Assembly: GCA_009783465.1 (NCBI GenBank)
Contig: WRDM01000011.1
Location: 2,911 to 66,910, forward strand
Reading direction: 5' to 3'
Source of the DNA: Phycisphaerae bacterium
GTDB taxonomy: Bacteria; Planctomycetota; Phycisphaerae; SM23-33
Length of the DNA: 64,000 nt
The notes beneath the pieces are model-generated. The model searched no databases. It was given only the letters and a program-made list of their open reading frames with translations, and was not told the origin of the DNA. Below are positions 6,705 to 48,588 of this stretch, in pieces (the stretch's first letter is position 1; every line of letters starts with the position of its first letter). Both the position numbers and the translations under genes were made by a program.

Positions 6705-7280
6705 GTGCGACGAAAATCGGTGTATACCACGGGAGAGGCAGCCGAGCTGTGTAAGCTTTCGCAGCAGACGGTGATTCGTTGTTTTGACAGCGGGCAGTTG
6801 AAAGGGTTCCGCGTGCCCGGCAGCAAGTTCCGGCGGATTCCGCGCGCGGAGTTGCTGACGTTCATGAAGAGCAACGGCATTCCGTTTGACAGCCTGGAGA
6901 CGGACTACAAAATCCGCGTGCTCGTCGTGGATGACGATCCCGACATCGTGGAGTTGTTTGTCGACGCGTTGCGGGAGGACGGACTATTCGAGGTCGCCAC
7001 CGCGGCCACCGGCTTCGACGCGGGCGTGCTGGCGCAGCAGTTTTCGCCGGACATCGTGGTGTTGGATTTCATGCTTCCGGACATTAACGGCAACGTGGTC
7101 TGCCGCACCATTCGCGAGAATCCCGAGTTGTCGCACATCAAGGTGCTGGTGATTTCCGGCGCGGTCAATCCGGCGGAGATCGACAAGCTCAAAGCCGCCG
7201 GCGCGGACGACTTCATCAAGAAGCCCTTCAATATCGAAGTGGTCACGAAGCGTATCAAGGAGTTGGTGCGAGGGCAGTGA
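6705..7280 (+). CDS. Response regulator with N-terminal excisionase/MerR-type HTH and C-terminal receiver domain
   Basis: GTG at 6705 follows aggagg. The HTH segment is TTGEAAELCKLSQQTVIRCFDSGQLKGFRVPGSKFRRIP. The REC domain is RVLVVDDDPDI...VVLDFMLPDING...KVLVISG...KKPF. Confidence 0.8.
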   Translation: MRRKSVYTTGEAAELCKLSQQTVIRCFDSGQLKGFRVPGSKFRRIPRAELLTFMKSNGIPFDSLETDYKIRVLVVDDDPDIVELFVDALREDGLFEVATAATGFDAGVLAQQFSPDIVVLDFMLPDINGNVVCRTIRENPELSHIKVLVISGAVNPAEIDKLKAAGADDFIKKPFNIEVVTKRIKELVRGQ

Positions 7281-7283
7281 TGG

Positions 7284-7392
7284 AACAGCAGGCTGTTAGA
7301 CGATTAGGCTGTTAGACTGTCAGGCGCGGGCTTATGCATCATTAGGCCTAACGCCTCATGAGCCTGCGCCTAACAGTCTAACAGCCTGTTGT
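7284..7392. repeat. Hairpin repeat with 8-nt periodic arms (cctaacag family), copy 1 of 2
   Basis: Left arm aacagcaggctgttagacgattaggctgttagactgtcaggcgcgggcttatg pairs with right arm catgagcctgcgcctaacagtctaacagcctgtt. The core ggcttatg...tcatgagcctgcgcc is shared with 55283-55393. It begins 4 nt after the stop codon. Confidence 0.85.
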
Positions 7393-10616: not shown

Positions 10617-10781
10617 ATCGAAATCCGAAATTCGAAGCCCGAAATCCGAAACAAACTCCAAAGCCCCAAACGACAAAACCCAAACGCTCCGCTATCCAAA
10701 ACATTTGGACCGCGGAGCGTTTGAAATTTTCTGCTTTGGGGCTTTGGAATTTGTTTCGAATGTCGAATTTAGGATTTCGTA
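10617..10781. repeat. Long hairpin repeat with 7-nt periodic arms (gaaatcc family), copy 2 of 3
   Basis: Left arm gaaatccgaaattcgaagcccgaaatccgaaacaaactccaaagccccaaacgacaaaacccaaacgctc pairs with right arm gagcgtttg...ctttggggctttggaatttgtttcgaatgtcgaatttaggatttcg. It sits between convergent genes, and the right arm overlaps the last codons of mnmG. Confidence 0.85.
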
Positions 10782-12742
10782 TTTTTCGCCAGGTGAATCG
10801 CCAGCACGGTGATGTCCGCCGGGGTGATGCCGCTGACGCGTAAGGCTTGGGCGAGGGTGCGCGGGGCGATGGCGGCCAGGCGTTCTCTTGCTTCGTGACG
10901 CAGCGATTTGACGGCGCGATAGTCCAGGTCTCGCGGGATCAATTTGTGTTCGAGGTCTGCGAGCATGGCCAATGATTGGCGCTCGCGAACCATGTAGCCG
11001 TCGTAGCGGGCATCGACGAGGAGCGACTCGATCGCGCGCGGGTGGGCGGCGGTCAGTTGGGATAAACGGGATCCGGGATCCGGGATTCGGGATCCGGGCG
11101 CGGAGGTCGAATCGCCGTTCGTGGTGGCTTCGCCTGTTTGCGTTGTGGGATGTTCCTGTGGTATGGAACGTTCCGTGTCACACGAACGTTCTACAACGCA
11201 AACAGGCGGAGCCACATCCACATTTTTTCCGTCTTCGGGTGTCGGTTGCGTTCGTTGTGCCAATTCCCACAACGTTTTCCCATGTTTTCGCGTGGAATGG
11301 AGAATCGTTCGCGCTTCGGTGACGGCGGATTGGTTGGCGGAGAAGATTTCCCAGCGGTGGTCGTCGACGAGGCCCGCCGCGCGGCCGAGGGGGGTCAGGC
11401 GGCGGTCGGCGTTGTCGGCGCGGAGGCTGAGGCGGTGTTCGCTGCGGCTGGTGAACATGCGGTAGGGTTCGGTGATGCCGCGTGTCACGAGGTCGTCGAT
11501 CATCACGCCGATGTAGGCCTGGTCGCGGCGGAGGACGAATTCGTTTCGGCCCAGGGCGCTGGCGGCGGCGTTGGCGCCGGCGACGAGGCCTTGGGCGGCG
11601 GCTTCTTCATAGCCGGTGGTGCCGTTGACCTGTCCGGCGAGGAACAGGCCGGCGAGGGCTTTGGTTTCGAGCGTCGCGCGGAGTTGGGTTGGCGGGGCGT
11701 AGTCGTACTCGATCGCGTAGCCGAACCGCAGGATCGTCGCGTTTTCCAGGCCCTTGATGCGGCCGATGACGGTGGCCTGCACGTCTTCGGGGAGCGAGGT
11801 GGTCAGGCCGTTGACGTAGACCCAGTGGGTCGCGATGCCTTCGGGTTCGAGGAAAATCGGGTGGGCGTTTTTATCGGCGAATCGTTCGATTTTGGTTTCG
11901 ATGTTGGGGCAGTATCGAGGTCCGGCGGATTGGAGCAGGCCTGAACGCGTCGGGGCGCGGTGGACGTTTTCGCGGATGGCGCGGTGGACGTCGTCGTTGG
12001 TGGCGGTGAGGTGGCAGGGGATTTGGTGGACGTCGAGGTGGTCGGTGAGGAAGGAGAAGGGCGTGGGCGTCGCGTCGCCGTGCTGGGGCGTGCAGCGGGC
12101 GTAGTCGATGGTGTCGGCGGCCAATCGCGGGCAGGTGTCGGTCCGCAGTCGGCCCAGTGTCAGGCCCAGTGCTTGCAGCGAGCGTGACAGGCCGGTGACG
12201 GCGGGTTCGTCGATGCGGCCTCCGTCCCACGATCGGTCGCCCAGGAACATCTGGCCGTTCATAAACGTGCCCGTCGTCACGACGATGGATTTGGCGTGAA
12301 AACGTTCGCCGTCCGCGTGTGTCGATTGGACCGTCGCGCCCGTCACTCGACCGCCTTCGACGAGGATGTCGACGACTTCGCCTTCGATGACGGTGAGGTG
12401 GGTTCGTTGCGAGAGTGTGTGTTGGATCCACGCGGCGTAGGCATGGCGGTCGGACTGGCATCGCGGGCCCCAGACGGCGGGGCCTTTGGAGCGGTTGAGC
12501 ATGCGGAACTGGATGCCGGTGGCGTCGGCGGCCTGGCCCATCAGGCCGCCGAGCGCGTCGATTTCGCGGACGATAGGCCCCTTGCCCACGCCGCCGACGG
12601 CGGGGTTGCACGCCATCTGCGCCACCGTGGCCATCGAGAGCGTTACCAACGCCGTCCGCGCACCCATCGCGCTGGCAGCCCAGGCGGCCTCCACACCCGC
12701 ATGCCCGCCGCCGATCACCAGGACGTCATAGTCTGTATGCAT
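10769..12742 (-). CDS. mnmG: tRNA uridine 5-carboxymethylaminomethyl modification enzyme MnmG (GidA)
   Basis: The N-terminus [20 protein letters not shown] is an FAD-binding motif, followed by [13 protein letters not shown]. MnmG similarity runs through to [18 protein letters not shown] roughly 60-aa extra segment near the C-terminus is encoded by a repeat element. Confidence 0.95.
11068..11213. repeat. Repeat element inside the mnmG coding sequence: (gggatcc)n tandem array plus 21-bp-arm inverted repeat
   Basis: 11068-11098 is gggatccgggatccgggattcgggatccggg. The IR arm ggcttcgcctgtttgcgttgt (11127-11147) pairs with acaacgcaaacaggcggagcc (11193-11213) with 1 mismatch. The motif tttgcgttgt...acaacgcaaa is shared with 53542-53695. 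Confidence 0.8.
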
Positions 12743-38610: not shown

Positions 38611-41301
38611 TCACTCCCGTACCGGTTCCAGGTCGGTCAGGGGGATTTCCAGTTCGAAGGCGCCGCTTTGCACGACGGCGTGTTGTTTGTCCGGGTTGAT
38701 GCGGAGGAGCGTGGCGCGTTTGTGAAACGGGACGACGTACACCTGTTGGCCTGGCTGGACGGCGAGCAGTTTGTCGAGGTGTTCTTTGGATCGGCCTTGG
38801 GGGCTTCGGCGGTGCATCGGCTGTGGGGCGGCGGGCTCAGAGTCGCCGTCGCGCGGCGTCGATTCGCCGTGTCGGCTTCGATCGCCGTGTCGTGGCCCGT
38901 GTCGGCCTCGGGCGGGATCGGCCTCGCGCCCGGCCTTCGCGAACGGGCTTTCCTGCGGGAACAGTTCCTGCAACGTCACCTCCAACTCGCCGGCAATCGT
39001 CTGTACCTTCGCCTTACCTCGCGCGAAATCCACCGACGTGAGCGTGCCGTTGCCCGGCAGCTTTGTCAGCGTCACTTCGTCGCCGACCTTCATCTCGCCG
39101 ATCCGCGCCAGCCACGCGTCGAACTGCCGCGAACGCTCCTTCTGTTCGCGCAGGCTCCGCTCGAGTTCTTTCTGCGCGTGGGTTGCCTGCGCGGCGGCCT
39201 GCTCGCTGGCGGCCGCCTGCGCGTGCATCTGCTGACGCACCGCGTTGATCTGCCCCCGCACGGCTTCCTGGCCGAGGTCGGGCATCAGTTCGCGGAGGGG
39301 CACTTCGATTTGCAGCGGGTCGGCATTGACGACGGCGATCTGGCGGTGCAGCTCCAGCCGAACCAGCCTGCCCATGCGTCGCAGCGAGGGCACGAAGACG
39401 TCGTCGCCTTCTTTGAGTTCACCCAGGCCCGCCAGCCAGAGGTTGAATTCCTCCTGGAGTCGTCGCAGGTCGGCAAGTTTGACTTCGTACGAAACCTGCT
39501 GGGTTTGGGCGGCCAATTGGGCTTCCGCGGCGGCGGCGCGGGCCTGCTCGGCGTCCTGGCGGACGATGCTCGTCGCCTGAATCGCCCGGCGAAACTGCTT
39601 GCCCTGTTGGTTCAGGTATTGGCGGGATGCGCCGACGATGCGTCGGGGCAGGCCCAGGTGGGCGGCCACCGAGATGGCATGACTTTCGCCGGGCGTGCCG
39701 ATGAGCAGGTGGTAGGTCGGGCGGAGGGTTTCGGAGTTGAAGGCGACGCTGGCGTTGTCGACGCGTTCGTTGGCGTAGGCGTAGGCTTTGAGGACGCTCA
39801 GGTGCGTCGTGACGATGCACGCGCAGCCGACGCGGCGGATTTCGTCGAGAATCGCCTGCCCGATCGCGCCGCCCTCGTCGGGGTCGGTGCCGCTGCCGAG
39901 TTCGTCCAGCAGGACGAGACTGGCGGCGTCGGCTTTGTGAAGGATGTACCGCACCCGCTTGATGTGGGCGCCGAACGTGGAGAGCGACTGCTCCAGCGAC
40001 TGTTCGTCGCCGATGTCGATGAAGACGTCGCGGTAGGCGGGCATGATCGCGCCGCGCCGGACCGGAATGTGCATGCCGCTCTGGGCCATCACTACCAGCA
40101 GCGCCACCGTTTTCAGCGCGACGGTCTTTCCGCCGGTGTTCGAGCCGGTGATGATCAGCACGTCGAAATCCTGGCCAAGGCGGATGTCGATGGGGACGAC
40201 AGCCGGCGTAGCCGCGCAACGTGACGCGGGCATCTCGCCCGCGTTGTGTGTACCATCGCCCTGGCTGGTGGAAGGCGCCAAATTTTTTCCGTCATTGCCG
40301 GACGCGGGCAAGATGCCCTCGCCACGTTGCTCCGTCTGCTCGATCAGCAGCGGGTGCCTGGCCTGGTGAAACACCAGCGGGCCTCGCTCGGTGATTTCCG
40401 GGCAGGTGAAGTTGAACTGGTACGCGTACTGCGCCTTGGCCGTCAGGACGTCGATGTGGGCCAGGCTGTGGAGCGTCGTGCGGACGCGGTCGGCGACGGC
40501 GAAGATTCGCAGGGCGAGTTGGCTGAGGAGGCGTTGGATTTCTCGGCGTTCGTCCTCGGCCAGATCGCTGAGGCGGTTGTTGAGTTGCACGCAGGCTTCG
40601 GGTTCAACGAACACGGTCGCGCCGCTGTGGGACGCGCGGTGGACGACGCCGGGCAGTCGGCCTCGGTTTTCCGCCTTTACCGGCAGCACGTAGCGGTCGC
40701 CGTGGAGGGTGACGACGGCCTCCTGGAGCAGTTTGGCGACTTCGCTTTGCCGCACGTAGCTGTGGATGAGGCTGTGGATGGCCTGCGCCGTGTCGGCCAT
40801 GTGGCGGCGGACTTCGGCGAGTTTGTGGCTGGCGCGGTCGCTGACGATGCCGTCGGGGTCGATGACGGCGTGCACGGCGTCGATTTCGCTTTGGAATTCG
40901 CCGATCCCACCGGCCATCGCGTGCAGCAGCGGCAGCGACTCGGGCAGTGAGAGCAGATAGCGGCGGACGTTCATCGCGCCTTCGAGCGTGCCGGCGATGA
41001 CGAGAAAATCTTCCGCGCTGGCGCCCGCGCCCGGCGTGGCCCGTTCCAGGGCGGCGGTGATGTCCACCACGCCGCCGAACGGCGGCAAGCCCACGTCGCG
41101 CAAGGCAGCCACCATCTGGCTGACCTGTTCCAGCCACTCGCGAATCACGGCGGGGTTTCGGCTGGGCCCGATACGCCGTGCCAATTCGCGTCCCAGCCCG
41201 CACCGACAATACCGCGACAAAATCGCCCGGACGGCATCGAACTCAATTTTGTTCAGCGTAAACGAATCCACATTGGCCTCGCAAACAAACCTGTCGCTCA
41301 T
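38611..41301 (-). CDS. mutS2: MutS2-family ATPase (no Smr domain detected; triplicated C-terminal module)
   Basis: The MutS domain V has Walker A ITGSNTGGKTVALKT and Walker B LVLLDELGSGTDPDEGGA, with ARHPLL upstream. The C-terminus lacks an Smr-like LDLHG motif and instead has three roughly 45-aa related units. Confidence 0.8.
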   Translation of the reverse strand: MSDRFVCEANVDSFTLNKIEFDAVRAILSRYCRCGLGRELARRIGPSRNPAVIREWLEQVSQMVAALRDVGLPPFGGVVDITAALERATPGAGASAEDFLVIAGTLEGAMNVRRYLLSLPESLPLLHAMAGGIGEFQSEIDAVHAVIDPDGIVSDRASHKLAEVRRHMADTAQAIHSLIHSYVRQSEVAKLLQEAVVTLHGDRYVLPVKAENRGRLPGVVHRASHSGATVFVEPEACVQLNNRLSDLAEDERREIQRLLSQLALRIFAVADRVRTTLHSLAHIDVLTAKAQYAYQFNFTCPEITERGPLVFHQARHPLLIEQTEQRGEGILPASGNDGKNLAPSTSQGDGTHNAGEMPASRCAATPAVVPIDIRLGQDFDVLIITGSNTGGKTVALKTVALLVVMAQSGMHIPVRRGAIMPAYRDVFIDIGDEQSLEQSLSTFGAHIKRVRYILHKADAASLVLLDELGSGTDPDEGGAIGQAILDEIRRVGCACIVTTHLSVLKAYAYANERVDNASVAFNSETLRPTYHLLIGTPGESHAISVAAHLGLPRRIVGASRQYLNQQGKQFRRAIQATSIVRQDAEQARAAAAEAQLAAQTQQVSYEVKLADLRRLQEEFNLWLAGLGELKEGDDVFVPSLRRMGRLVRLELHRQIAVVNADPLQIEVPLRELMPDLGQEAVRGQINAVRQQMHAQAAASEQAAAQATHAQKELERSLREQKERSRQFDAWLARIGEMKVGDEVTLTKLPGNGTLTSVDFARGKAKVQTIAGELEVTLQELFPQESPFAKAGREADPARGRHGPRHGDRSRHGESTPRDGDSEPAAPQPMHRRSPQGRSKEHLDKLLAVQPGQQVYVVPFHKRATLLRINPDKQHAVVQSGAFELEIPLTDLEPVRE
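40216..40330. repeat. Palindromic element inserted in frame inside mutS2
   Basis: The sequence runs gcaacgtgacgcgggcatctcgcccgcgttgtg ... ccggacgcgggcaagatgccctcgccacgttgc. It is homologous to 46003-46136 (same orientation) and 38505-38608 (inverted). It is translated as ILPASGNDGKNLAPSTSQGDGTHNAGEMPASRCAA. Confidence 0.85.
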
Positions 41302-41310
41302 TATACATCG

Positions 41311-44256
41311 TTATTTCTTGTACCGTTCTTCGGCTTTCTTTTTTGCGGCGAGCAGGCGACCCATGGCGGTGTTGTCGGCGGGAGGCGGTGTTTGGGGCGG
41401 GTCGGATTTCTTTGGTTCGGCTGGGGCGCGTTTGTCGGTTGGGGCGGAGAGGTCGGCCGTTGGCAGGGCGCGATCGGCGTCGGTGTTGGCGGCGGCGTCG
41501 TAGTGGCGTGTGGGTTGGGTTTGTGCGCCGGATTGGCCGGCGAGGTTTTTTTTGACCTGTTCGCGCCGGGCCTGGAGGCGGGCGATGCCTTCGTTGACGG
41601 CGGCGGGTTGTTTGCGGCGGACGAGGCTGGCGATTTTTCGGCCGATGTTGCCCCAGTCGACGGCGACGCGTCGCACGGCGACGTCGAGGAGGAAGGCGAT
41701 CAGGAACACGATGACGAGGGACTTGGTCATCGGCGTGGCGGTTCGGGGGAACTGCAGGCCCTGGCGGGCGAAGAGGTCGGTGGTGCGGTCGACGCTGGTG
41801 AGCACCCGGCCTCCGGTCATGCGTGCGATCTCGGCCAGCAGGGCGGTGTTGTCCTGGAGGTCTTCGAATTCGGGCGCGTAGGGGACGGAGACGACGGACT
41901 GGACGATTTTTCGCGAGTCGGGCGGGCCGTAATGGAGGTTGACGAGGTAGCTGCCGGCGGCGTCGGCGTCGAATCGTGCGGCGTATCGGCCGGGGCCTAC
42001 TTGTCGCGGCGAGAGGGTTTGGGATTTCATGTCCGGCGAGATGACCTGCACGGCAAGGCCTTCGAGGTAGAGGAAGTTGCCGTCGCTGTCGTTGCTTTCG
42101 ACGACGAGTTCGACGCGGCGGTCCTGGACGTCGGCGAAGATTTCGCATTCGCCGCCGCCGGCGGATCGGACCGCGTGTCGGACGGCCCGCTCCCAGAAGC
42201 TCGCGAAATCCGGCCAGGTTGCCCACGCGTTGTCCCACTGCCCGCCGACGGAGGAGGTGAACGCGACGGTGCGGCCCAGTCCGCTGGGCATGGCGGCGAG
42301 GATCGGATCTTTTTCGTCTGTGCCGTGGAGGATGACGCGCGCGAGGCCTCCCTTGGGTCGGCCCGTCAGGACGTAACCGTCCAGCGCGGGCAGGTGTGCG
42401 ATGGTTCGGCCGAGTTCGTGGTCGCCGGCTTCGAGGGCGGGCGTGAAGCGTGTTTCCTGGATCAGCGAGCGTCGGACGACCTGGGCTTCCTTGACGAAAA
42501 TTTGCGGCAGTTCGTTGGCGGATTTCGGCTGGTAGTATCGGCCTCCGGTGATCCGCGCCATTTCGCGCATGCCTCGCAGGCCCGGGTCGTCGGGGCTGTG
42601 CGGGGCGACGACGACGACGGTGATGGAGATTCTGGCGGCCTTGCAGTCGGCGAGCAGTTGGGGGCTGGGCCGCTGCGGGTCGCCGTCGGTGATGATGATG
42701 ATGTGCCGCTGTCCTGCCCGGCTGGCGACGAGGGCGTCGTGGGCGGACTGGATGTGCGGACCGAGATCGAAGAAATCGTTCATGACCATCTGGTCGATGG
42801 CTTTGAGGATGCCGCTTTTGTCGCCAGCGGGCTGAAGCGGGTATTCCCACGGGTCGTTAGGCGTGTTGAGTTGGTAGCTGACGAGTCCGACGAGGTCGAG
42901 TCGGCTGAGGGCGTTTGCGGCGGCTTTTGCGGTTTCTTTTCCCCAGCGGTTTCCTTCGGGCATTTCGCAGGAGTGGATGACCAGGACGAGGGCGCCGAGA
43001 GGCATTTGTTCTTTTTGCGGCGGGTCCATTTCGACGGGCATGATGTTGGCGACGGGGCTGCCGATCCACCCGCCCGCGCCGAACGCGTCGGGGCCTCCGG
43101 TCATCACGAGGCCGCCGCCGAGGTCGTTGACGTAGCGGCAGATCATCTGCTGCTGCCGCATGGAGAACCAACTGTTGTCGACGTCGGCCAGGATGATGCA
43201 GTCGACGTCCACCAGTTCGCTGAGTTGCTGCGGGAAGCTCTCGGCCTGCACGTAGGTGACGGGGAATTTCGATTCCCGCAGCGCTTCGGCCAGCGGCAGC
43301 CCCGCGCGGCGGTCGGCGTCCACCAGCAGCACGCTGCCCGAGCCGGCGATGTAGGTCATCGCGCTGGCCATGTTGTTGTGGGGGATCTGGTCGTCGCGCG
43401 GGCTTGCGGGGGTGAAGACGGCTTTGAATTCGTGCATGCCGCGCTCGCCCAGCGGGACTTCCAGCGTGCGGACGTTGACGCCCTCGCGGAGCGTGACGGG
43501 GATTTGCGGCCCGTCCGCGCCGAGCACGACCGGCTGTCCGTTGACGCTCACCGTGATCGTGCCTCGCGCGGCGTGCGTGGATCGCAGGACCAGGCGCAGG
43601 GGCACGGTTTGGCCTGGACGTGCCCTCGGCGGCGCGACGAGGCGCGAGAAGATCACCTCGTTGTCGTGGCGGTACTGAAGAGGCACGACGTCGATGGGGA
43701 TGTTGTTGGCGGCCGCGCGGCGGGCGAATTCGCGAAGATCGCCGCGCGTTTCGTTACCGTCGCTGACGAGCAGCAGCCGGCAGGCGGTGTCCGGCGGCGC
43801 GACGGCCATCGCCATCTGCAACCCGCCGGAAAGATAACTCTGCTCGCCGAGCATCTGTCTGGAGTAATCTTCGAGCTCGATTTTATTGCCCGGCAGCTTG
43901 GCGATGGCGACGACTTCGGCGGCGTCGATGACGGCGAAGCGGTCTTGGGCCGGTTTGTTTTCGCCCGCCGCCCGCAACGCCGCCAGCGCGTTCTGACGAA
44001 CCGGCTCGGGCACGGACTGGCTGCGGTCGATGACGGCCAGCAGCGTCACCTGCGTGCTCTTCTCTCCGAGCATCGGCTCGGCCAGCAGCGTCGCCAGCAG
44101 CAGCACCACCAGCACGCGCAACACGGTGGCCGTGATTCGCCGCGCACCGCCAAGACTCTTGAGCCCGCGCAGGCCAATCCACGCGATCGGCACCGCCAGC
44201 AACCCAGCCAGCAGCCACGCCGGATTGGCGAAAAAGAAGACCGTGGTGGCGATCAT
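41311..44256 (-). CDS. Membrane protein with BatA-type N-terminal double-TM domain and VWA domains
   Basis: The N-terminus is FFFANPAWLLAGLLAVPIAWIGLRGLK. A MIDAS-type motif VIDRSQSV is present, then LLVSDGNET. A second VWA-like region has HIIIITDGDP. The stop lies 10 nt upstream of the mutS2 start. Confidence 0.75.
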   Translation of the reverse strand: MIATTVFFFANPAWLLAGLLAVPIAWIGLRGLKSLGGARRITATVLRVLVVLLLATLLAEPMLGEKSTQVTLLAVIDRSQSVPEPVRQNALAALRAAGENKPAQDRFAVIDAAEVVAIAKLPGNKIELEDYSRQMLGEQSYLSGGLQMAMAVAPPDTACRLLLVSDGNETRGDLREFARRAAANNIPIDVVPLQYRHDNEVIFSRLVAPPRARPGQTVPLRLVLRSTHAARGTITVSVNGQPVVLGADGPQIPVTLREGVNVRTLEVPLGERGMHEFKAVFTPASPRDDQIPHNNMASAMTYIAGSGSVLLVDADRRAGLPLAEALRESKFPVTYVQAESFPQQLSELVDVDCIILADVDNSWFSMRQQQMICRYVNDLGGGLVMTGGPDAFGAGGWIGSPVANIMPVEMDPPQKEQMPLGALVLVIHSCEMPEGNRWGKETAKAAANALSRLDLVGLVSYQLNTPNDPWEYPLQPAGDKSGILKAIDQMVMNDFFDLGPHIQSAHDALVASRAGQRHIIIITDGDPQRPSPQLLADCKAARISITVVVVAPHSPDDPGLRGMREMARITGGRYYQPKSANELPQIFVKEAQVVRRSLIQETRFTPALEAGDHELGRTIAHLPALDGYVLTGRPKGGLARVILHGTDEKDPILAAMPSGLGRTVAFTSSVGGQWDNAWATWPDFASFWERAVRHAVRSAGGGECEIFADVQDRRVELVVESNDSDGNFLYLEGLAVQVISPDMKSQTLSPRQVGPGRYAARFDADAAGSYLVNLHYGPPDSRKIVQSVVSVPYAPEFEDLQDNTALLAEIARMTGGRVLTSVDRTTDLFARQGLQFPRTATPMTKSLVIVFLIAFLLDVAVRRVAVDWGNIGRKIASLVRRKQPAAVNEGIARLQARREQVKKNLAGQSGAQTQPTRHYDAAANTDADRALPTADLSAPTDKRAPAEPKKSDPPQTPPPADNTAMGRLLAAKKKAEERYKK

Positions 44257-44547: not shown

Positions 44548-47148
44548 TCACGGCAGTTTCCACACCTGGACCCGATCGTTTCCGCCGTCCACCACGTAGG
44601 CCATGTTGTCGTCGTCGATCGCGACGGCCCAGGGGTAACTGAGTTGTCCCAGTTCGCGTCCGGCTGAACCCAGTGAAGCGATTGCCTGGCCGTCGGGCGT
44701 GAAAATCTGTACGCGGTTGTTGCCCTGTTCGACGACGACCAGCCGGCCGTCGCGCGTCAACGCCAGGCCGTACGGATATCGCAACTGCCCAGGCCCGCTG
44801 CCCGGCGAGCCGATGTAGCCCTGCAATTCACAACGGAGATTGTACACCGCGACGCGGTGATTGCACGCGTCCGTCACGTACAATCGGTCGCGGGCGGCGT
44901 CGACGGCCATCGACTGCGGCCTCGAGAACTGCCCCGCCTCCGGGCCGAACGATCCGAACGCGCCGAGGAATTTTCCTTCCGGCGTGAAGAGGTTGATGCG
45001 GTCGTTGGCGCCGTACTCGCTGACGAGCACGCGGCCGTCGGGGAGGAACGCGATGTCGGTGGGGAAGATGAATTGGCCGTCGCCCTCGCCGAAACTGCCC
45101 CACTGGCGGACGAGTTCGCCGTCACGGGAGAAGACCATGACACGGTGGCAGTGCGTGTCGGCCACGTAGATGTTTCCGTCGGGTCCGACGCTGACGCCGC
45201 AGGGTTTGCCGGCGACGATGTCGGGCATGGCGATGTCGCGCACGAAACCGCCGTCGGGGCTGAGCAGTTGGACGCGTCCGGTTTTGTCGACGACGACGAG
45301 CGTGCCGTCGGCGAAGCGGTCGATCGCGCGCGGGTAGAGGAGCTCGCCGTTGCCCGAGCCGCGTCGGCCGATCTTGCCGCGCACGTCGGGCGGGCTGTCG
45401 TGCGGACGCGAGCAGGCCGGCAGCGACACGCCCGACAGAGCGACGATCAGCAGCAGCGTCATCAGCGAGCGGCGGCGGCGAGCCAGCCGCAGCAGCAGCC
45501 ACAGGCCGATCGCGGCGGCGAGGTAGAAGCCGAATAATAGCAGGCATGCGGCGACGACTTCCTGGTCCCGCAAGGCGTGCATCTGGTTGAGGAGGTAGAG
45601 GCTGAGGCTGAAGGCGCCCGGCGGCGAGACGATCTGGCTGCCGGTGATTTCGGTCAGGCCGAGCATGAGGACGACGACGGCGGCCCCCGCGAGCGTCGGC
45701 CAGGTCGCGGGGAGATGGACGTGCCGCCAGGCCTGCCAGGGCGACGCGCCGTCGACGGCGGCGGCTTCGGCGAGCGAGCGGCTTCGCGCGTCGCGGACGG
45801 CCCAGAAGACGATCAGCGCCAGGCCGGCGAATCGCACGCCCTGGAAGAGGCTCACCAGCAGCACGCTGTCGCGCAGCGGCAACAGCCACTCGTACCGCGC
45901 GATCCACTGCGACATCGCCACCGCGACCAACCCGCCGGGAATGATGGCCACGACCAGCAGGGAGACGGCGATGAGGGCGGTGATAATGCGGCGCGGGCGG
46001 CTGCAACGTGACGCGGGCGTCTCGCCCGCGTTGTGCGTTCCATTGATTTGGTTGTTGGAATACGTCGAACCGCCTTTGCCGCTCCGCGTGGGCAAGATGC
46101 CCGCGAGACGCATGGGCGAGACGCCCTCGCCACGTGAAACGCCCGTGTCCCAAGCGATCCTTGCCAGCAGCAGCGCCACGCCGGCGCCGAGGGCGGAGAC
46201 GGCCAGCGATTGGACGTATTTATCCGCCTGGAGCGTGACGAACTGCGCGAGATAATGCGGCGACATCGTGCCGGCCAGCAACGCCAGAGGCCCCGCCAGC
46301 GTGAACAGTAGCAGGGCGGTCACGAACGTCCAGGCCCATCGTCTCGGCCGGCCTGTAAATGATTTGGCACCGCCGCCGGTGTGATCGGCCCAGCCCTTCG
46401 CCGATCGCGCCAGCGCGACGGCCAACAGCAGCGACATCGCCGCCAGCGGCACGCAGCCGGCCACCGCCGGACCGACGCGAAGCGACTGCTGCATCGCCAA
46501 CGCCAACTCCGTGCCGATCGTCGCCTGACCGGCCAAATGCAGCGACGCGAAATCGGCTAAACACAGCGCAAAACACAGCCCCGCCGCCAGCGCGGCCGGG
46601 CGGGTCATCAGCGGAGCGGCCACGTATCGCAATCGGGCGAGCGGGCGGGCATCCAGGGCGGCGGCGTCGTGCACCTCGGCGGGAATGTTTCGCCACCCCT
46701 GCGCCAACAGCAGCGCCGCCAACGGCCAATACCACAGCACCAGTGTGAACGAGGAGGAGATCCAGGCCGCCCACTCCGCCAGCGTGCGGTCGGCGGCGAC
46801 GTACTGCCCCAGCGCCGCCGTCGGCGACAGGCAGATCGCCCACGAATAATACAACACGTACTGCGGCAGCAGCACGCTCGCCAATGCCAGCACGGTCAGC
46901 CCGCCCGCCCACCGACGCGATGCCGTCGCCATCAGCCATGCCGGCACGAGCCCCAACGCCACCGCCATCGCCGCCACCATCGCCGCCAACCCCACCGACC
47001 GCGCCGCCACCGGTGACCACCAGAGCGCCAACCCCTCCGCCAGATCCGCCAGCGAAACCTGCGACACCAGCCCCGCCAACGGGACAACGACGAGGCAAGC
47101 CCAGATCGCGACGCCGAGCAGGAGCAGGATGGGTCGTAGAATGGTCAT
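44548..47148 (-). CDS. ABC transporter permease (two-domain FbpB-type) fused in frame to an NHL-repeat beta-propeller protein
   Basis: ATG at 47148 gives MTILRPILLLLGVAIWACLVV. Multiple TM segments occur in two permease halves. After LLRLARRRRSL comes an internal Met with a lipoprotein-like signal MTLLLIVALSGVSLPAC, then six NHL-type blades (YPRAI, PCGVSV, FPTDIAF, RPQSMAV, YPYGLAL, YPWAVAI). Confidence 0.8.
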   Translation of the reverse strand: MTILRPILLLLGVAIWACLVVVPLAGLVSQVSLADLAEGLALWWSPVAARSVGLAAMVAAMAVALGLVPAWLMATASRRWAGGLTVLALASVLLPQYVLYYSWAICLSPTAALGQYVAADRTLAEWAAWISSSFTLVLWYWPLAALLLAQGWRNIPAEVHDAAALDARPLARLRYVAAPLMTRPAALAAGLCFALCLADFASLHLAGQATIGTELALAMQQSLRVGPAVAGCVPLAAMSLLLAVALARSAKGWADHTGGGAKSFTGRPRRWAWTFVTALLLFTLAGPLALLAGTMSPHYLAQFVTLQADKYVQSLAVSALGAGVALLLARIAWDTGVSRGEGVSPMRLAGILPTRSGKGGSTYSNNQINGTHNAGETPASRCSRPRRIITALIAVSLLVVAIIPGGLVAVAMSQWIARYEWLLPLRDSVLLVSLFQGVRFAGLALIVFWAVRDARSRSLAEAAAVDGASPWQAWRHVHLPATWPTLAGAAVVVLMLGLTEITGSQIVSPPGAFSLSLYLLNQMHALRDQEVVAACLLLFGFYLAAAIGLWLLLRLARRRRSLMTLLLIVALSGVSLPACSRPHDSPPDVRGKIGRRGSGNGELLYPRAIDRFADGTLVVVDKTGRVQLLSPDGGFVRDIAMPDIVAGKPCGVSVGPDGNIYVADTHCHRVMVFSRDGELVRQWGSFGEGDGQFIFPTDIAFLPDGRVLVSEYGANDRINLFTPEGKFLGAFGSFGPEAGQFSRPQSMAVDAARDRLYVTDACNHRVAVYNLRCELQGYIGSPGSGPGQLRYPYGLALTRDGRLVVVEQGNNRVQIFTPDGQAIASLGSAGRELGQLSYPWAVAIDDDNMAYVVDGGNDRVQVWKLP
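46003..46136. repeat. Palindromic element inserted in frame inside the ABC permease gene
   Basis: The sequence runs gcaacgtgacgcgggcgtctcgcccgcgttgtg ... gggcaagatgcccgcgagacgcatgggcgagacgccctcgccacgtg. It is translated as RGEGVSPMRLAGILPTRSGKGGSTYSNNQINGTHNAGETPASRC, in the same frame as the mutS2 copy. Confidence 0.85.
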
Positions 47149-47157
47149 ACGTGAAAA

Positions 47158-47337
47158 GCCACTAGCCACTAGCCACCAGGTATGGCCGAACCTGTTGTGA
47201 ATAAGAACACACTGGCGGTGCGGCAACGTATCGTCAGTGTTTTCGTTGTTCACGCATACTCGTCAGACTCGCATCAACTCTTTTGCCTTCACCATCGTCG
47301 CCCCTTACCTTGTGGCTAGTGGCTTGTGGCTAGTGGC
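47158..47337. repeat. Hairpin repeat with 7-nt gccacta arms and conserved core, copy 2
   Basis: gccactagccactagccaccagg pairs with ccttaccttgtggctagtggcttgtggctagtggc. The core is collinear with 44310-44490. It lies between the permease start and the binding-protein stop. Confidence 0.85.
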
Positions 47338-47345
47338 TCGCATTC

Positions 47346-48356
47346 TTACCGCCCGAAGACAGCCTTTGCCTCGGCACGCGCCTTGTCGAGATTGTCCACG
47401 ATGGTTTCGTACGGCACGTCCAGCGGTTTGCCCAGGCCGTAGGATGCGTGCCATGCGTCGGGCATGATTGTGTGGATGGGCTGATTGCGGGCTTCGCTTT
47501 CGGCCAGGCGTTTTTCGGCGTGCTGGAGGAGGAATTCCGCCAGCAGGCGGGCCTCTTCGGTGTTCGGCCCGCCGCGAATCAACGCCACCGTGTTGGGGAA
47601 CGTCATCGCGCCGCGTCCGTTCTGATCCAGCGGGGCCATGCCGATCCGCCAGCCTTTTTCGCGCGCCTCGAAGACGTCGTCGCTGTCGGTCAGGCCGATG
47701 TCGGCACGGTTTAACGCCACTTCCAGAACGGCCTTGGAATTGCCGTCGACCAATCTCGCCCGGACGGCCAATTGCGCGAGAATGGCCCGCGTCCGCTCGT
47801 CACCGTAGTGGGCGAACCAACTGGCCACGTCGCCGCCGGTCGTGCCGAACTGCGGATTGGCCATCACCAGCCGATACGGATGGCGCCCGTCGACGACCGC
47901 CAGCAGATCCTCCAGCGACCGCGGCGCGTGATCGTCCGGCACGCGGTCCGTTGACCACGCGATCACGCGCTGCCGCAACGCAAAGCCGTGCCATTGCCCT
48001 TCAGGCCCGCGAAATTGCTCGGGCCAATTCGCCACGACCGGCGACTCCAGCGGCGCGAGCAACCCCTGACGCTGCAACTGAATCATGTACACCACTTCGT
48101 TGGACCAGAAGACATCGCAGGCGGGCTTGGCCTTCTCCGCCAGCAGGCGGTTGAACAGCCCAACAGTCTTGGCGGCCTCCGAATCGCAAACGCGATCCAC
48201 GCGGATGCCGGTCTGTTTCTCGAACTCGTCGAGAATCGGATCGGCCACCTGCACGTCGGCGGAATAATACAACACCACCCGCCGCTGCTTTTTGTCCTGG
48301 CAGGCGGCCAAGACTAACACAGGGACGAGGCAGGATAATACCAGCAAATTTTTCAT
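47346..48356 (-). CDS. ABC transporter periplasmic substrate-binding lipoprotein (iron(III)/FbpA-like family)
   Basis: ATG at 48356 gives MKNLLVLSCLVPVLVLAAC (lipobox). The pattern VVLYYSADVQVADPILDEFEKQTGIRV is typical of SBP_bac_6/FbpA-type proteins. It sits adjacent to the permease. No ATPase gene is in the window. Confidence 0.75.
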   Translation of the reverse strand: MKNLLVLSCLVPVLVLAACQDKKQRRVVLYYSADVQVADPILDEFEKQTGIRVDRVCDSEAAKTVGLFNRLLAEKAKPACDVFWSNEVVYMIQLQRQGLLAPLESPVVANWPEQFRGPEGQWHGFALRQRVIAWSTDRVPDDHAPRSLEDLLAVVDGRHPYRLVMANPQFGTTGGDVASWFAHYGDERTRAILAQLAVRARLVDGNSKAVLEVALNRADIGLTDSDDVFEAREKGWRIGMAPLDQNGRGAMTFPNTVALIRGGPNTEEARLLAEFLLQHAEKRLAESEARNQPIHTIMPDAWHASYGLGKPLDVPYETIVDNLDKARAEAKAVFGR

Positions 48357-48588
48357 GGCACTTACGATAGCATTACGCGACGGTGTACCCAAGAAAAAAC
48401 GGCGTGCGGAAATGGAGGCCAACCGGTTGTTTTCCACGAAAAATCAGATATTGTCCGCTGGGCCAGACAATTCAACCACACCCTCACTGATCACACATCA
48501 CGGCTTCCGGTTGCAATTCTCCGCCGCGTGCATACGCTGTATGGGCAGGTGGTGGCCGGTTTCGCGGTTTTTCGGTAAAGGAGAACGT

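Follow-up and report, generated by a model that had tools for sequence, protein, structure and literature searches.

We describe a gene that encodes a membrane transport protein and a lipoprotein as one chain, with the lipoprotein signal peptide kept inside it. The gene lies on the reverse strand of a 64,000-nucleotide stretch of a Phycisphaerae bacterium (assembly GCA_009783465.1, contig WRDM01000011.1, positions 2,911 to 66,910; hereafter the window). The source is a metagenome-assembled genome (MAG) of 70 contigs, 70% complete. A single open reading frame (ORF) joins an FbpB-type double permease, as found in ATP-binding cassette (ABC) importers, to an NHL-repeat beta-propeller, and a lipoprotein signal peptide with its lipobox stands between the two. 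On the basis of this gene and its homologues, we propose that such permease::NHL proteins are natural membrane polyproteins, which would be split by Lgt and LspA at the internal lipobox. Fusion and fission would then be nearly neutral, with the signal peptide serving as a built-in cleavage site. We put the probability of this polyprotein reading at about 0.5.

The in-frame fusion with a retained signal peptide had been noticed in a preliminary description of the window, and the single ORF, the Pfam matches, the topology, the AlphaFold model, Foldseek and the lipobox all agree on it. At the join, the protein reads ...LLRLARRRRSL-M598-TLLLIVALSGVS-LPAC614-SRP. Topology prediction, which had been suggested as a check, gives 12 transmembrane (TM) helices and then an extra one: hydropathy displays 12 hydrophobic helices and a 13th at residues 596-614, and the positive-inside pattern puts helix 13 in an N-in/C-out orientation. 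The signal occupies residues 592-614 of the 901-aa chain, behind the 12 TM helices, and is not N-terminal. Both Lgt (PF01790, 205.6 bits, contig C8) and LspA (PF01252, 79.5 bits, contig C5) are encoded in the same genome.

The homologues reveal which parts of the join are kept. A whole-protein search yielded 119 cluster representatives of the fused type (514-904 aa, nearly all 750-904 and a few truncated; 30-75% identity), which come from Planctomycetota assemblies named Phycisphaerales, Sedimentisphaerales and Tepidisphaeraceae, the taxon names being database labels. Permease sequence, join and propeller occur in one chain, with the same join, in 119/119 representatives. All 119 also have a basic n-region, a hydrophobic stretch and the pattern [LVI..][AGSTP][GA]C. 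The lipobox cysteine is invariant, and the G or A at position -1 nearly so, both in an alignment of 35 homologues and in the 119 fused sequences scanned. The residue after the cysteine in these 119 is most often D (42), followed by E (22), G (18) and S (14). The rest of the linker is unconserved in the 35-sequence alignment, where Met598 is private to the window. The preliminary description had named, as an outcome that would refute it, orthologues that are uniformly fused and carry a degenerate signal. This came out half each way: the orthologues are indeed fused, but the signal is strictly conserved as a lipoprotein signal.

The geometry of the signal was compared with that of ordinary lipoproteins. 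From the last charged residue to the cysteine, the uncharged stretch has a median length of 16 residues in 116 fused proteins (interquartile range (IQR) 15-17) and likewise of 16 in 60 free NHL lipoproteins (IQR 14-19); the window protein has 18. Measured in this way, the stretch is of signal-peptide length and short for a permanent TM anchor. A passage of one study of the endoplasmic reticulum system gives cleaved signals shorter hydrophobic cores than signal anchors (PMC2120157). Meanwhile, AlphaFold models both large domains confidently, and the predicted local distance difference test (pLDDT) score drops to 57-61 in the helix at residues 596-609 and below 50 at residues 610-616. This suggests that residues 610-616 form a flexible linker.

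On the coding strand, the join reads tcg ctg atg acg, as first described, with the ATG at 45462-45460 and a TGATGA out of frame. The TGATGA looks like a stop/start overlap, and the sequence comes from a fragmented and incomplete MAG. Both points would suit an artefact or a very recent accident, in which two separate genes were joined by a 1-nt indel of recent date or by an error of assembly or sequencing; a recent 1-nt indel and an assembly indel were among the possibilities in the preliminary description. However, in the two closest relatives (71-72% identity), which share the synteny, the fusion falls at this very point, and the sequences there are CGC GTG CTG ACG ACG ATG and CGG ACG TTG CTG. 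Because they read otherwise, TGATGA is simply this genome's codons for L-M-T, and we rejected it as a relic of overlapping genes. Moreover, TM12 with its basic tail and the NHL part share one frame in the 119 independent representatives, down to 30% identity and with complete genomes included, as well as in 40 of the 99 NHL-bearing genomes of the class, and neither part needs an alternative frame for its completion. These comparisons already refute the artefact for the family, and we regard an indel error or very recent accident as extremely improbable. Judged by its homologues, the fusion is real and old.

A further possibility raised earlier is that ribosomes also initiate at ATG 45462 (GTG or TTG in relatives), making a separate pre-lipoprotein beside the fused chain. 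In the window, the in-frame ATG coincides exactly with the beginning of the h-region, the V/L-rich joins of relatives supply GTG and TTG codons, and gene callers picked such a start in the relative's locus L032. Against this, start-like codons are expected by chance in an L/V-rich helix, Met598 already differs in the two closest relatives, and the upstream sequence CCGCCGCCGCTCGCTG has no purine-rich, Shine-Dalgarno-like ribosome-binding stretch. No conserved internal start or ribosome-binding site was found at the join in the window and these two relatives. As the permease has no stop codon, the fused chain would still be made, and the lipobox would still need explaining. We consider an internal start improbable.

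The start of the fused frame itself probably lies upstream of the annotated one. In the database copy, P0003, the protein is counted from ATG 47148 and is 866 aa long, the length given in the preliminary description; an exact look-up of this sequence returned no protein record. One frame does run through both parts, but it probably begins at GTG 47253, which gives 901 aa. We prefer the GTG because the N-terminus read from it, VNNENTDD, aligns with the homologue starts MKNDNV and VNDETI.

Comparison of orthologous loci revealed that fused and split versions both occur among the relatives. A search using the NHL part as query gave 1530 relatives with E <= 1e-20. Of the 120 listed, most stand alone, at 290-350 aa, and wherever the N-terminus is complete it bears a classical lipoprotein signal. 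Three split loci within the class were verified at the DNA level. In L033, a 515-aa permease and the NHL gene are 3 kb apart, with two foreign genes between them. In L034, from the complete genome of Humisphaera borealis, a 227-bp spacer separates the two genes, which are in different frames. The third, L035, belongs to genome G657 of the window's own family. A 100-nt hairpin repeat lies between the two genes here: a TAA at its left edge terminates the permease, and directly beyond the hairpin the NHL gene begins anew as LVARALLVAVCLAMAGC. The hairpin at the permease/NHL join (L035:4452-4572) has a DNA folding energy of -33.5 kcal/mol, a z-score of -8.7 and 76 matches in G657. By this comparison, a mobile hairpin split a fused gene in G657, and the old helix 13 is its new N-terminal signal peptide.

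An apparent fourth case had to be set aside. The annotated entry P0125 has 314 aa and starts at an internal Met, but no stop interrupts the frame across permease and propeller in its locus (L032:2780-5297, Phycisphaerae bacterium SM23_33, LJUF01000206.1), where the record annotates the NHL half only. We rejected P0125 as a split gene. Because it proved to be an annotation artefact, the states were counted from stop-to-stop frames in 301 genomes of the class, independently of gene annotation. The NHL gene is carried by 99 of the 301: it is fused in 40 (758-1215 aa), split in 55 (300-520 aa) and intermediate in 4. Both states occur inside single families, the window's own among them. In a FastTree phylogeny of the repeat domain, fused and split rows are interspersed. 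By parsimony the tree requires 16 changes, compared with 34-44 when the labels are shuffled, and well-supported branches account for at least 5 of the 16; counted from called proteins, the number of transitions is an upper bound, since some called 'split' entries are annotation artefacts. On this phylogeny, the fusion is made and unmade repeatedly.

Based on these data, we propose the following origin and mechanism. The ancestral order in Planctomycetota would have been substrate-binding protein (SBP), FbpB-like permease, ABC ATPase, NHL-propeller lipoprotein, VWA/GATase1-like protein, MoxR, DUF58 and BatA. In the window's class, the ATPase gene is gone from that position, and in many lineages the permease reads straight into the NHL preprotein. 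The former N-terminal signal peptide would have become helix 13, which follows the RRRR tail of TM12, crosses the membrane N-in/C-out and would place the lipobox LPAC at the periplasmic surface. One precursor would be inserted, Lgt would add diacylglycerol to Cys614, and LspA would cut between Ala613 and Cys614. The products would be a permease with one additional helix at its C-terminus and a mature NHL lipoprotein that is held on the periplasmic side of the inner membrane; split relatives would make the same mature lipoprotein from a separate gene. Fusion would let the two be synthesised and inserted together, 1:1, at a functional cost that is small or nil, which would account for the ease with which the two states interconvert. 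The lipobox is invariant in a drifting linker, and the gene switches easily between fused and split states; the simplest account of both is that the lipobox is still used and processed. For this step taken by itself, lipidation of Cys614 and cleavage of the chain before it by LspA, we lean towards its being true.

Several points weigh against the polyprotein reading. Measured against the lipobox pattern [LVI][ASTVI][GAS]C, the Pro at -2 in the window's lipobox is less canonical, although it is found in 12/119 homologues. Conservation of the lipobox would also be expected if lipidation alone, and not cleavage, mattered. The number of transitions is bounded only from above in the sense given with the tree, and the search of this 70%-complete genome turned up no dedicated ATPase. 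Finally, the predicted template modelling score (pTM) of the whole chain is 0.82, so the propeller may be docked on the permease, which fits a permanent tether too.

In such a tether, helix 13 would be an uncleaved anchor, the propeller an accessory domain of the importer, and the cysteine would be kept for lipidation alone or for another reason. Fusions of a TM domain to an extracytoplasmic domain through an anchoring helix do exist and stay uncleaved in OpuA (PMC7673798). The pTM suggests a defined arrangement of the domains, and the fused state prevails in large clades, with 92/105 rows in one of them. On the other hand, a plain anchor could do without the invariant Cys, without the small residue at -1 and without a hydrophobic stretch held to 14-17 residues, and helix 13 has no sequence conservation and low model confidence. 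The split forms, above all L033 with two foreign genes in a 3-kb gap, indicate that the propeller does not need covalent attachment, and several lineages have the NHL gene without nearby ABC genes (L019, L020, L024, L025, L036). We judge a permanent tether to be unlikely, though a serious competitor to cleavage at the internal lipobox. The features that bear on both are collected in Table 1.

Table 1. The fused gene, its parts and its neighbours in the window, with residues numbered from GTG 47253.
Feature	Position	Strand	Basis and remarks
Permease::NHL lipoprotein fusion, single ORF	44548..47253 (including stop codon)	-	901 aa from GTG 47253; AlphaFold pLDDT 85.2, pTM 0.82
12-helix FbpB-type double permease, residues 1-595	45469..47253	-	Pfam, EAA loops, hydropathy, Foldseek
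Cytoplasmic RRRR after TM12, residues 592-595	45469-45480	-	Sequence
Helix 13, h-region of the internal lipoprotein signal peptide, residues 596-610, SLMTLLLIVALSGVS	45424..45468	-	Hydropathy, positive-inside topology
Lipobox L611-P612-A613-C614	45412..45423	-	Predicted Lgt site Cys614 (45412-45414); predicted LspA cut A613/C614
Six-bladed NHL beta-propeller, predicted periplasmic, residues 623-899	44557..45387	-	Pfam NHL, AlphaFold, Foldseek, phmmer
FbpA-type SBP gene, directly upstream of the fused gene	47346..48437	-	Pfam SBP_bac_11, E 1.4e-16; synteny in relatives
VWA + GATase1-like membrane protein, 981 aa, downstream of the fused gene	41311..44256	-	Pfam VWA, GATase1_like
In-frame insert of ~50 aa, permease cytoplasmic loop TM8-TM9	45991..46140	-	Translated palindromic repeat element

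The permease half matches Pfam BPD_transp_1 with 32.2 bits (cut-off 26.4) and contains two EAA loops, DAAALDARPL...APL at residues 196-215 (46609-46668) and EAAAVDGASPW...HLP at residues 496-515 (45709-45768). Within the second loop, D501, G502, A503 and P515 are invariant or nearly so in the homologue alignment. Foldseek aligns the permease with Thermus FbpBC (9j4r_A) over 562 columns (E 1.2e-12, TM-score 0.78), and the solved structures nearest to the neighbouring SBP are all ferric-binding proteins (3wae/4elo, E 6e-20). No ATPase gene was found in any fused or split locus examined in the window's class, and none of these loci has one between permease and NHL. Complete genomes of the fused type encode distant importer-type ATPases (E 1e-50 to 1e-54) whose similarity to the ATPase of locus L018 equals that of the syntenic orthologues. 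In the window's 70%-complete genome, the search gave generic matches only; ABC ATPases, at ~40% identity, are too alike for a partner to be assigned. Conservation of the EAA loops makes it probable that the permease still couples to an ATPase, one encoded at another site.

We notice that the cytoplasmic loop between TM8 and TM9 carries an insert which is missing from most homologues, and residues 374-416 have a pLDDT below 50. Alignment and model alike mark it as an element that is not part of the conserved protein. The insert, NGTHNAGETPASRC, recurs in the MutS2-like ORF at 38611-41301 (reverse strand) as DGTHNAGEMPASRC, and also in the relative P0005.

The propeller half is matched by Pfam NHL (E 2e-28) and by DUF5128. 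AlphaFold builds 24 strands in six blades with pLDDT above 90, and Foldseek superimposes the domain on the NHL domains of TRIM71 and Thin with a TM-score of 0.91 at 31-33% identity; phmmer against the TRIM71 NHL domain gives E 8e-52. The fused domain is an NHL propeller and does not have an SBP fold, and a separate SBP gene is kept upstream. A catalytic role for the motifs DTHxHR, DACNHR and GNNRxQ was considered and dropped, since they resemble ordinary NHL blade motifs. A second invariant cysteine, C797 (44863-44865, reverse strand), sits in the blade motif DACNHR and is present in 35/35 aligned homologues. As for function, we can offer a low-confidence guess: the propeller may be a periplasmic binding or scaffold module that works with the VWA/MoxR proteins and, where it is present, with the iron-type importer.

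Gene order was compared across Planctomycetota at loci L001-L003, L018-L027 and L032-L046. In other classes of the phylum these genes are separate; in L018, they run in the order SBP, 527-aa permease, 364-aa ABC ATPase (Pfam ABC_tran, E 2.6e-34), 335-aa NHL lipoprotein (...IAIPGC) and VWA protein; L021, L022 and L023 have the same separate-gene order. The VWA protein follows the NHL lipoprotein in L019, L020 and L024 despite the absence of ABC genes there. Altogether, a VWA/GATase1-like gene (~1000 aa) follows the NHL gene in 25/26 evaluable loci from several Planctomycetota classes, with or without ABC genes. For this reason, the constant partner of the NHL lipoprotein is the VWA/MoxR module, and the importer is a frequent neighbour. 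The NHL lipoprotein and VWA/GATase1-like genes are a conserved, uncharacterised gene pair.

Most relatives continue the series beyond the VWA gene with genes for a MoxR AAA+ protein, DUF58 and a BatA-like protein. This arrangement recalls the MoxR-DUF58-VWA 'Bat' (Bacteroides aerotolerance-type) clusters. To our knowledge, an NHL lipoprotein and an iron-type ABC importer have not been described as parts of a Bat operon. Unlike in these clusters, MoxR, DUF58 and BatA are not adjacent in the window, where a MutS2-like gene follows the VWA/GATase1-like gene instead (38611-44256, reverse strand). The window's genome has four MoxR-type genes on other contigs, the best with 51% identity to a relative's MoxR. 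Directly upstream of the SBP gene, a 530-580-aa protein without a Pfam match is encoded in several fused-type loci (L001:5195-6886, L002:5076-6821, L032:135-1721); the window lacks it and has a serpin gene on the opposite strand in its place. The VWA gene of L032 is spread over two frames, probably through a draft-assembly frameshift. In L034, two small PDDEXK_3 genes (6947-7342 and 10758-11174) flank the VWA gene inside the conserved cluster.

Several known systems resemble parts of this arrangement. The OpuA (OpuABC) importer of Lactococcus lactis and OpuF-type importers have the same plan as the window protein, in which a type I permease leads through an extra N-in/C-out helix into a folded domain outside (PMC7673798). 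There, too, the added domain goes back to a membrane-anchored periplasmic protein that was encoded by a neighbouring gene. In contrast, the fused domain of OpuA is a substrate-binding domain and the chain stays uncut, whereas the window has a separate SBP gene, an NHL propeller and a helix with a complete, invariant lipobox. The ferric importers FbpABC and FutABC (FbpBC 9j4r; FbpA 3wae/4elo) share with the window the double permease, the two EAA loops and the adjacent FbpA-like SBP. They differ in that the window locus has no ATPase gene and adds helix 13 and the propeller; iron is the putative substrate of the window's importer, by sequence and structure matches.

Precedents for cutting at an internal signal have also been described. 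Thony-Meyer et al. reportedly found that FbcH of Bradyrhizobium japonicum, a cytochrome b/c1 polyprotein, is split at an internal signal peptide. Like the window gene, FbcH combines a polytopic membrane protein, an internal signal peptide and a periplasmic protein in one ORF. It is cut by signal peptidase I, however, and its product is no lipoprotein, whereas the window protein has a lipobox for Lgt and LspA, and its two products are our proposal. Hayashi et al. (1985, J Biol Chem 260:5753), to go by the title, reportedly found that both E. coli and B. subtilis modify and process prolipoprotein signal sequences that have been internalized. Their constructs were artificial N-terminal extensions; in the window, a natural 12-helix membrane protein stands upstream. 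In our literature search, we came across no account of a permease::NHL fusion or of lipoboxes that are naturally internal.

Should processing at the internal lipobox occur, Lgt and LspA would need no free N-terminal signal peptide, even behind twelve membrane helices, and a polytopic membrane protein and a lipoprotein would come from one translation product. Current lipoprotein predictors, as far as we know, consider N-termini only, and LspA is an antibiotic target; processing at an internal site would bear on lipoprotein prediction and on the substrate range of LspA. It would bear as well on the annotation of fused ORFs in metagenomes, where some of the records used here call the second half only. 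If the chain stays uncut, it would be a new kind of ABC importer with a tethered periplasmic propeller that is not an SBP. Our findings further point to a conserved, unstudied Planctomycetota module made of the NHL lipoprotein, the VWA/GATase1-like membrane protein and MoxR, often together with an iron-type ABC importer. Experimental access to it is offered by cultured relatives, Humisphaera borealis with its split form among them.

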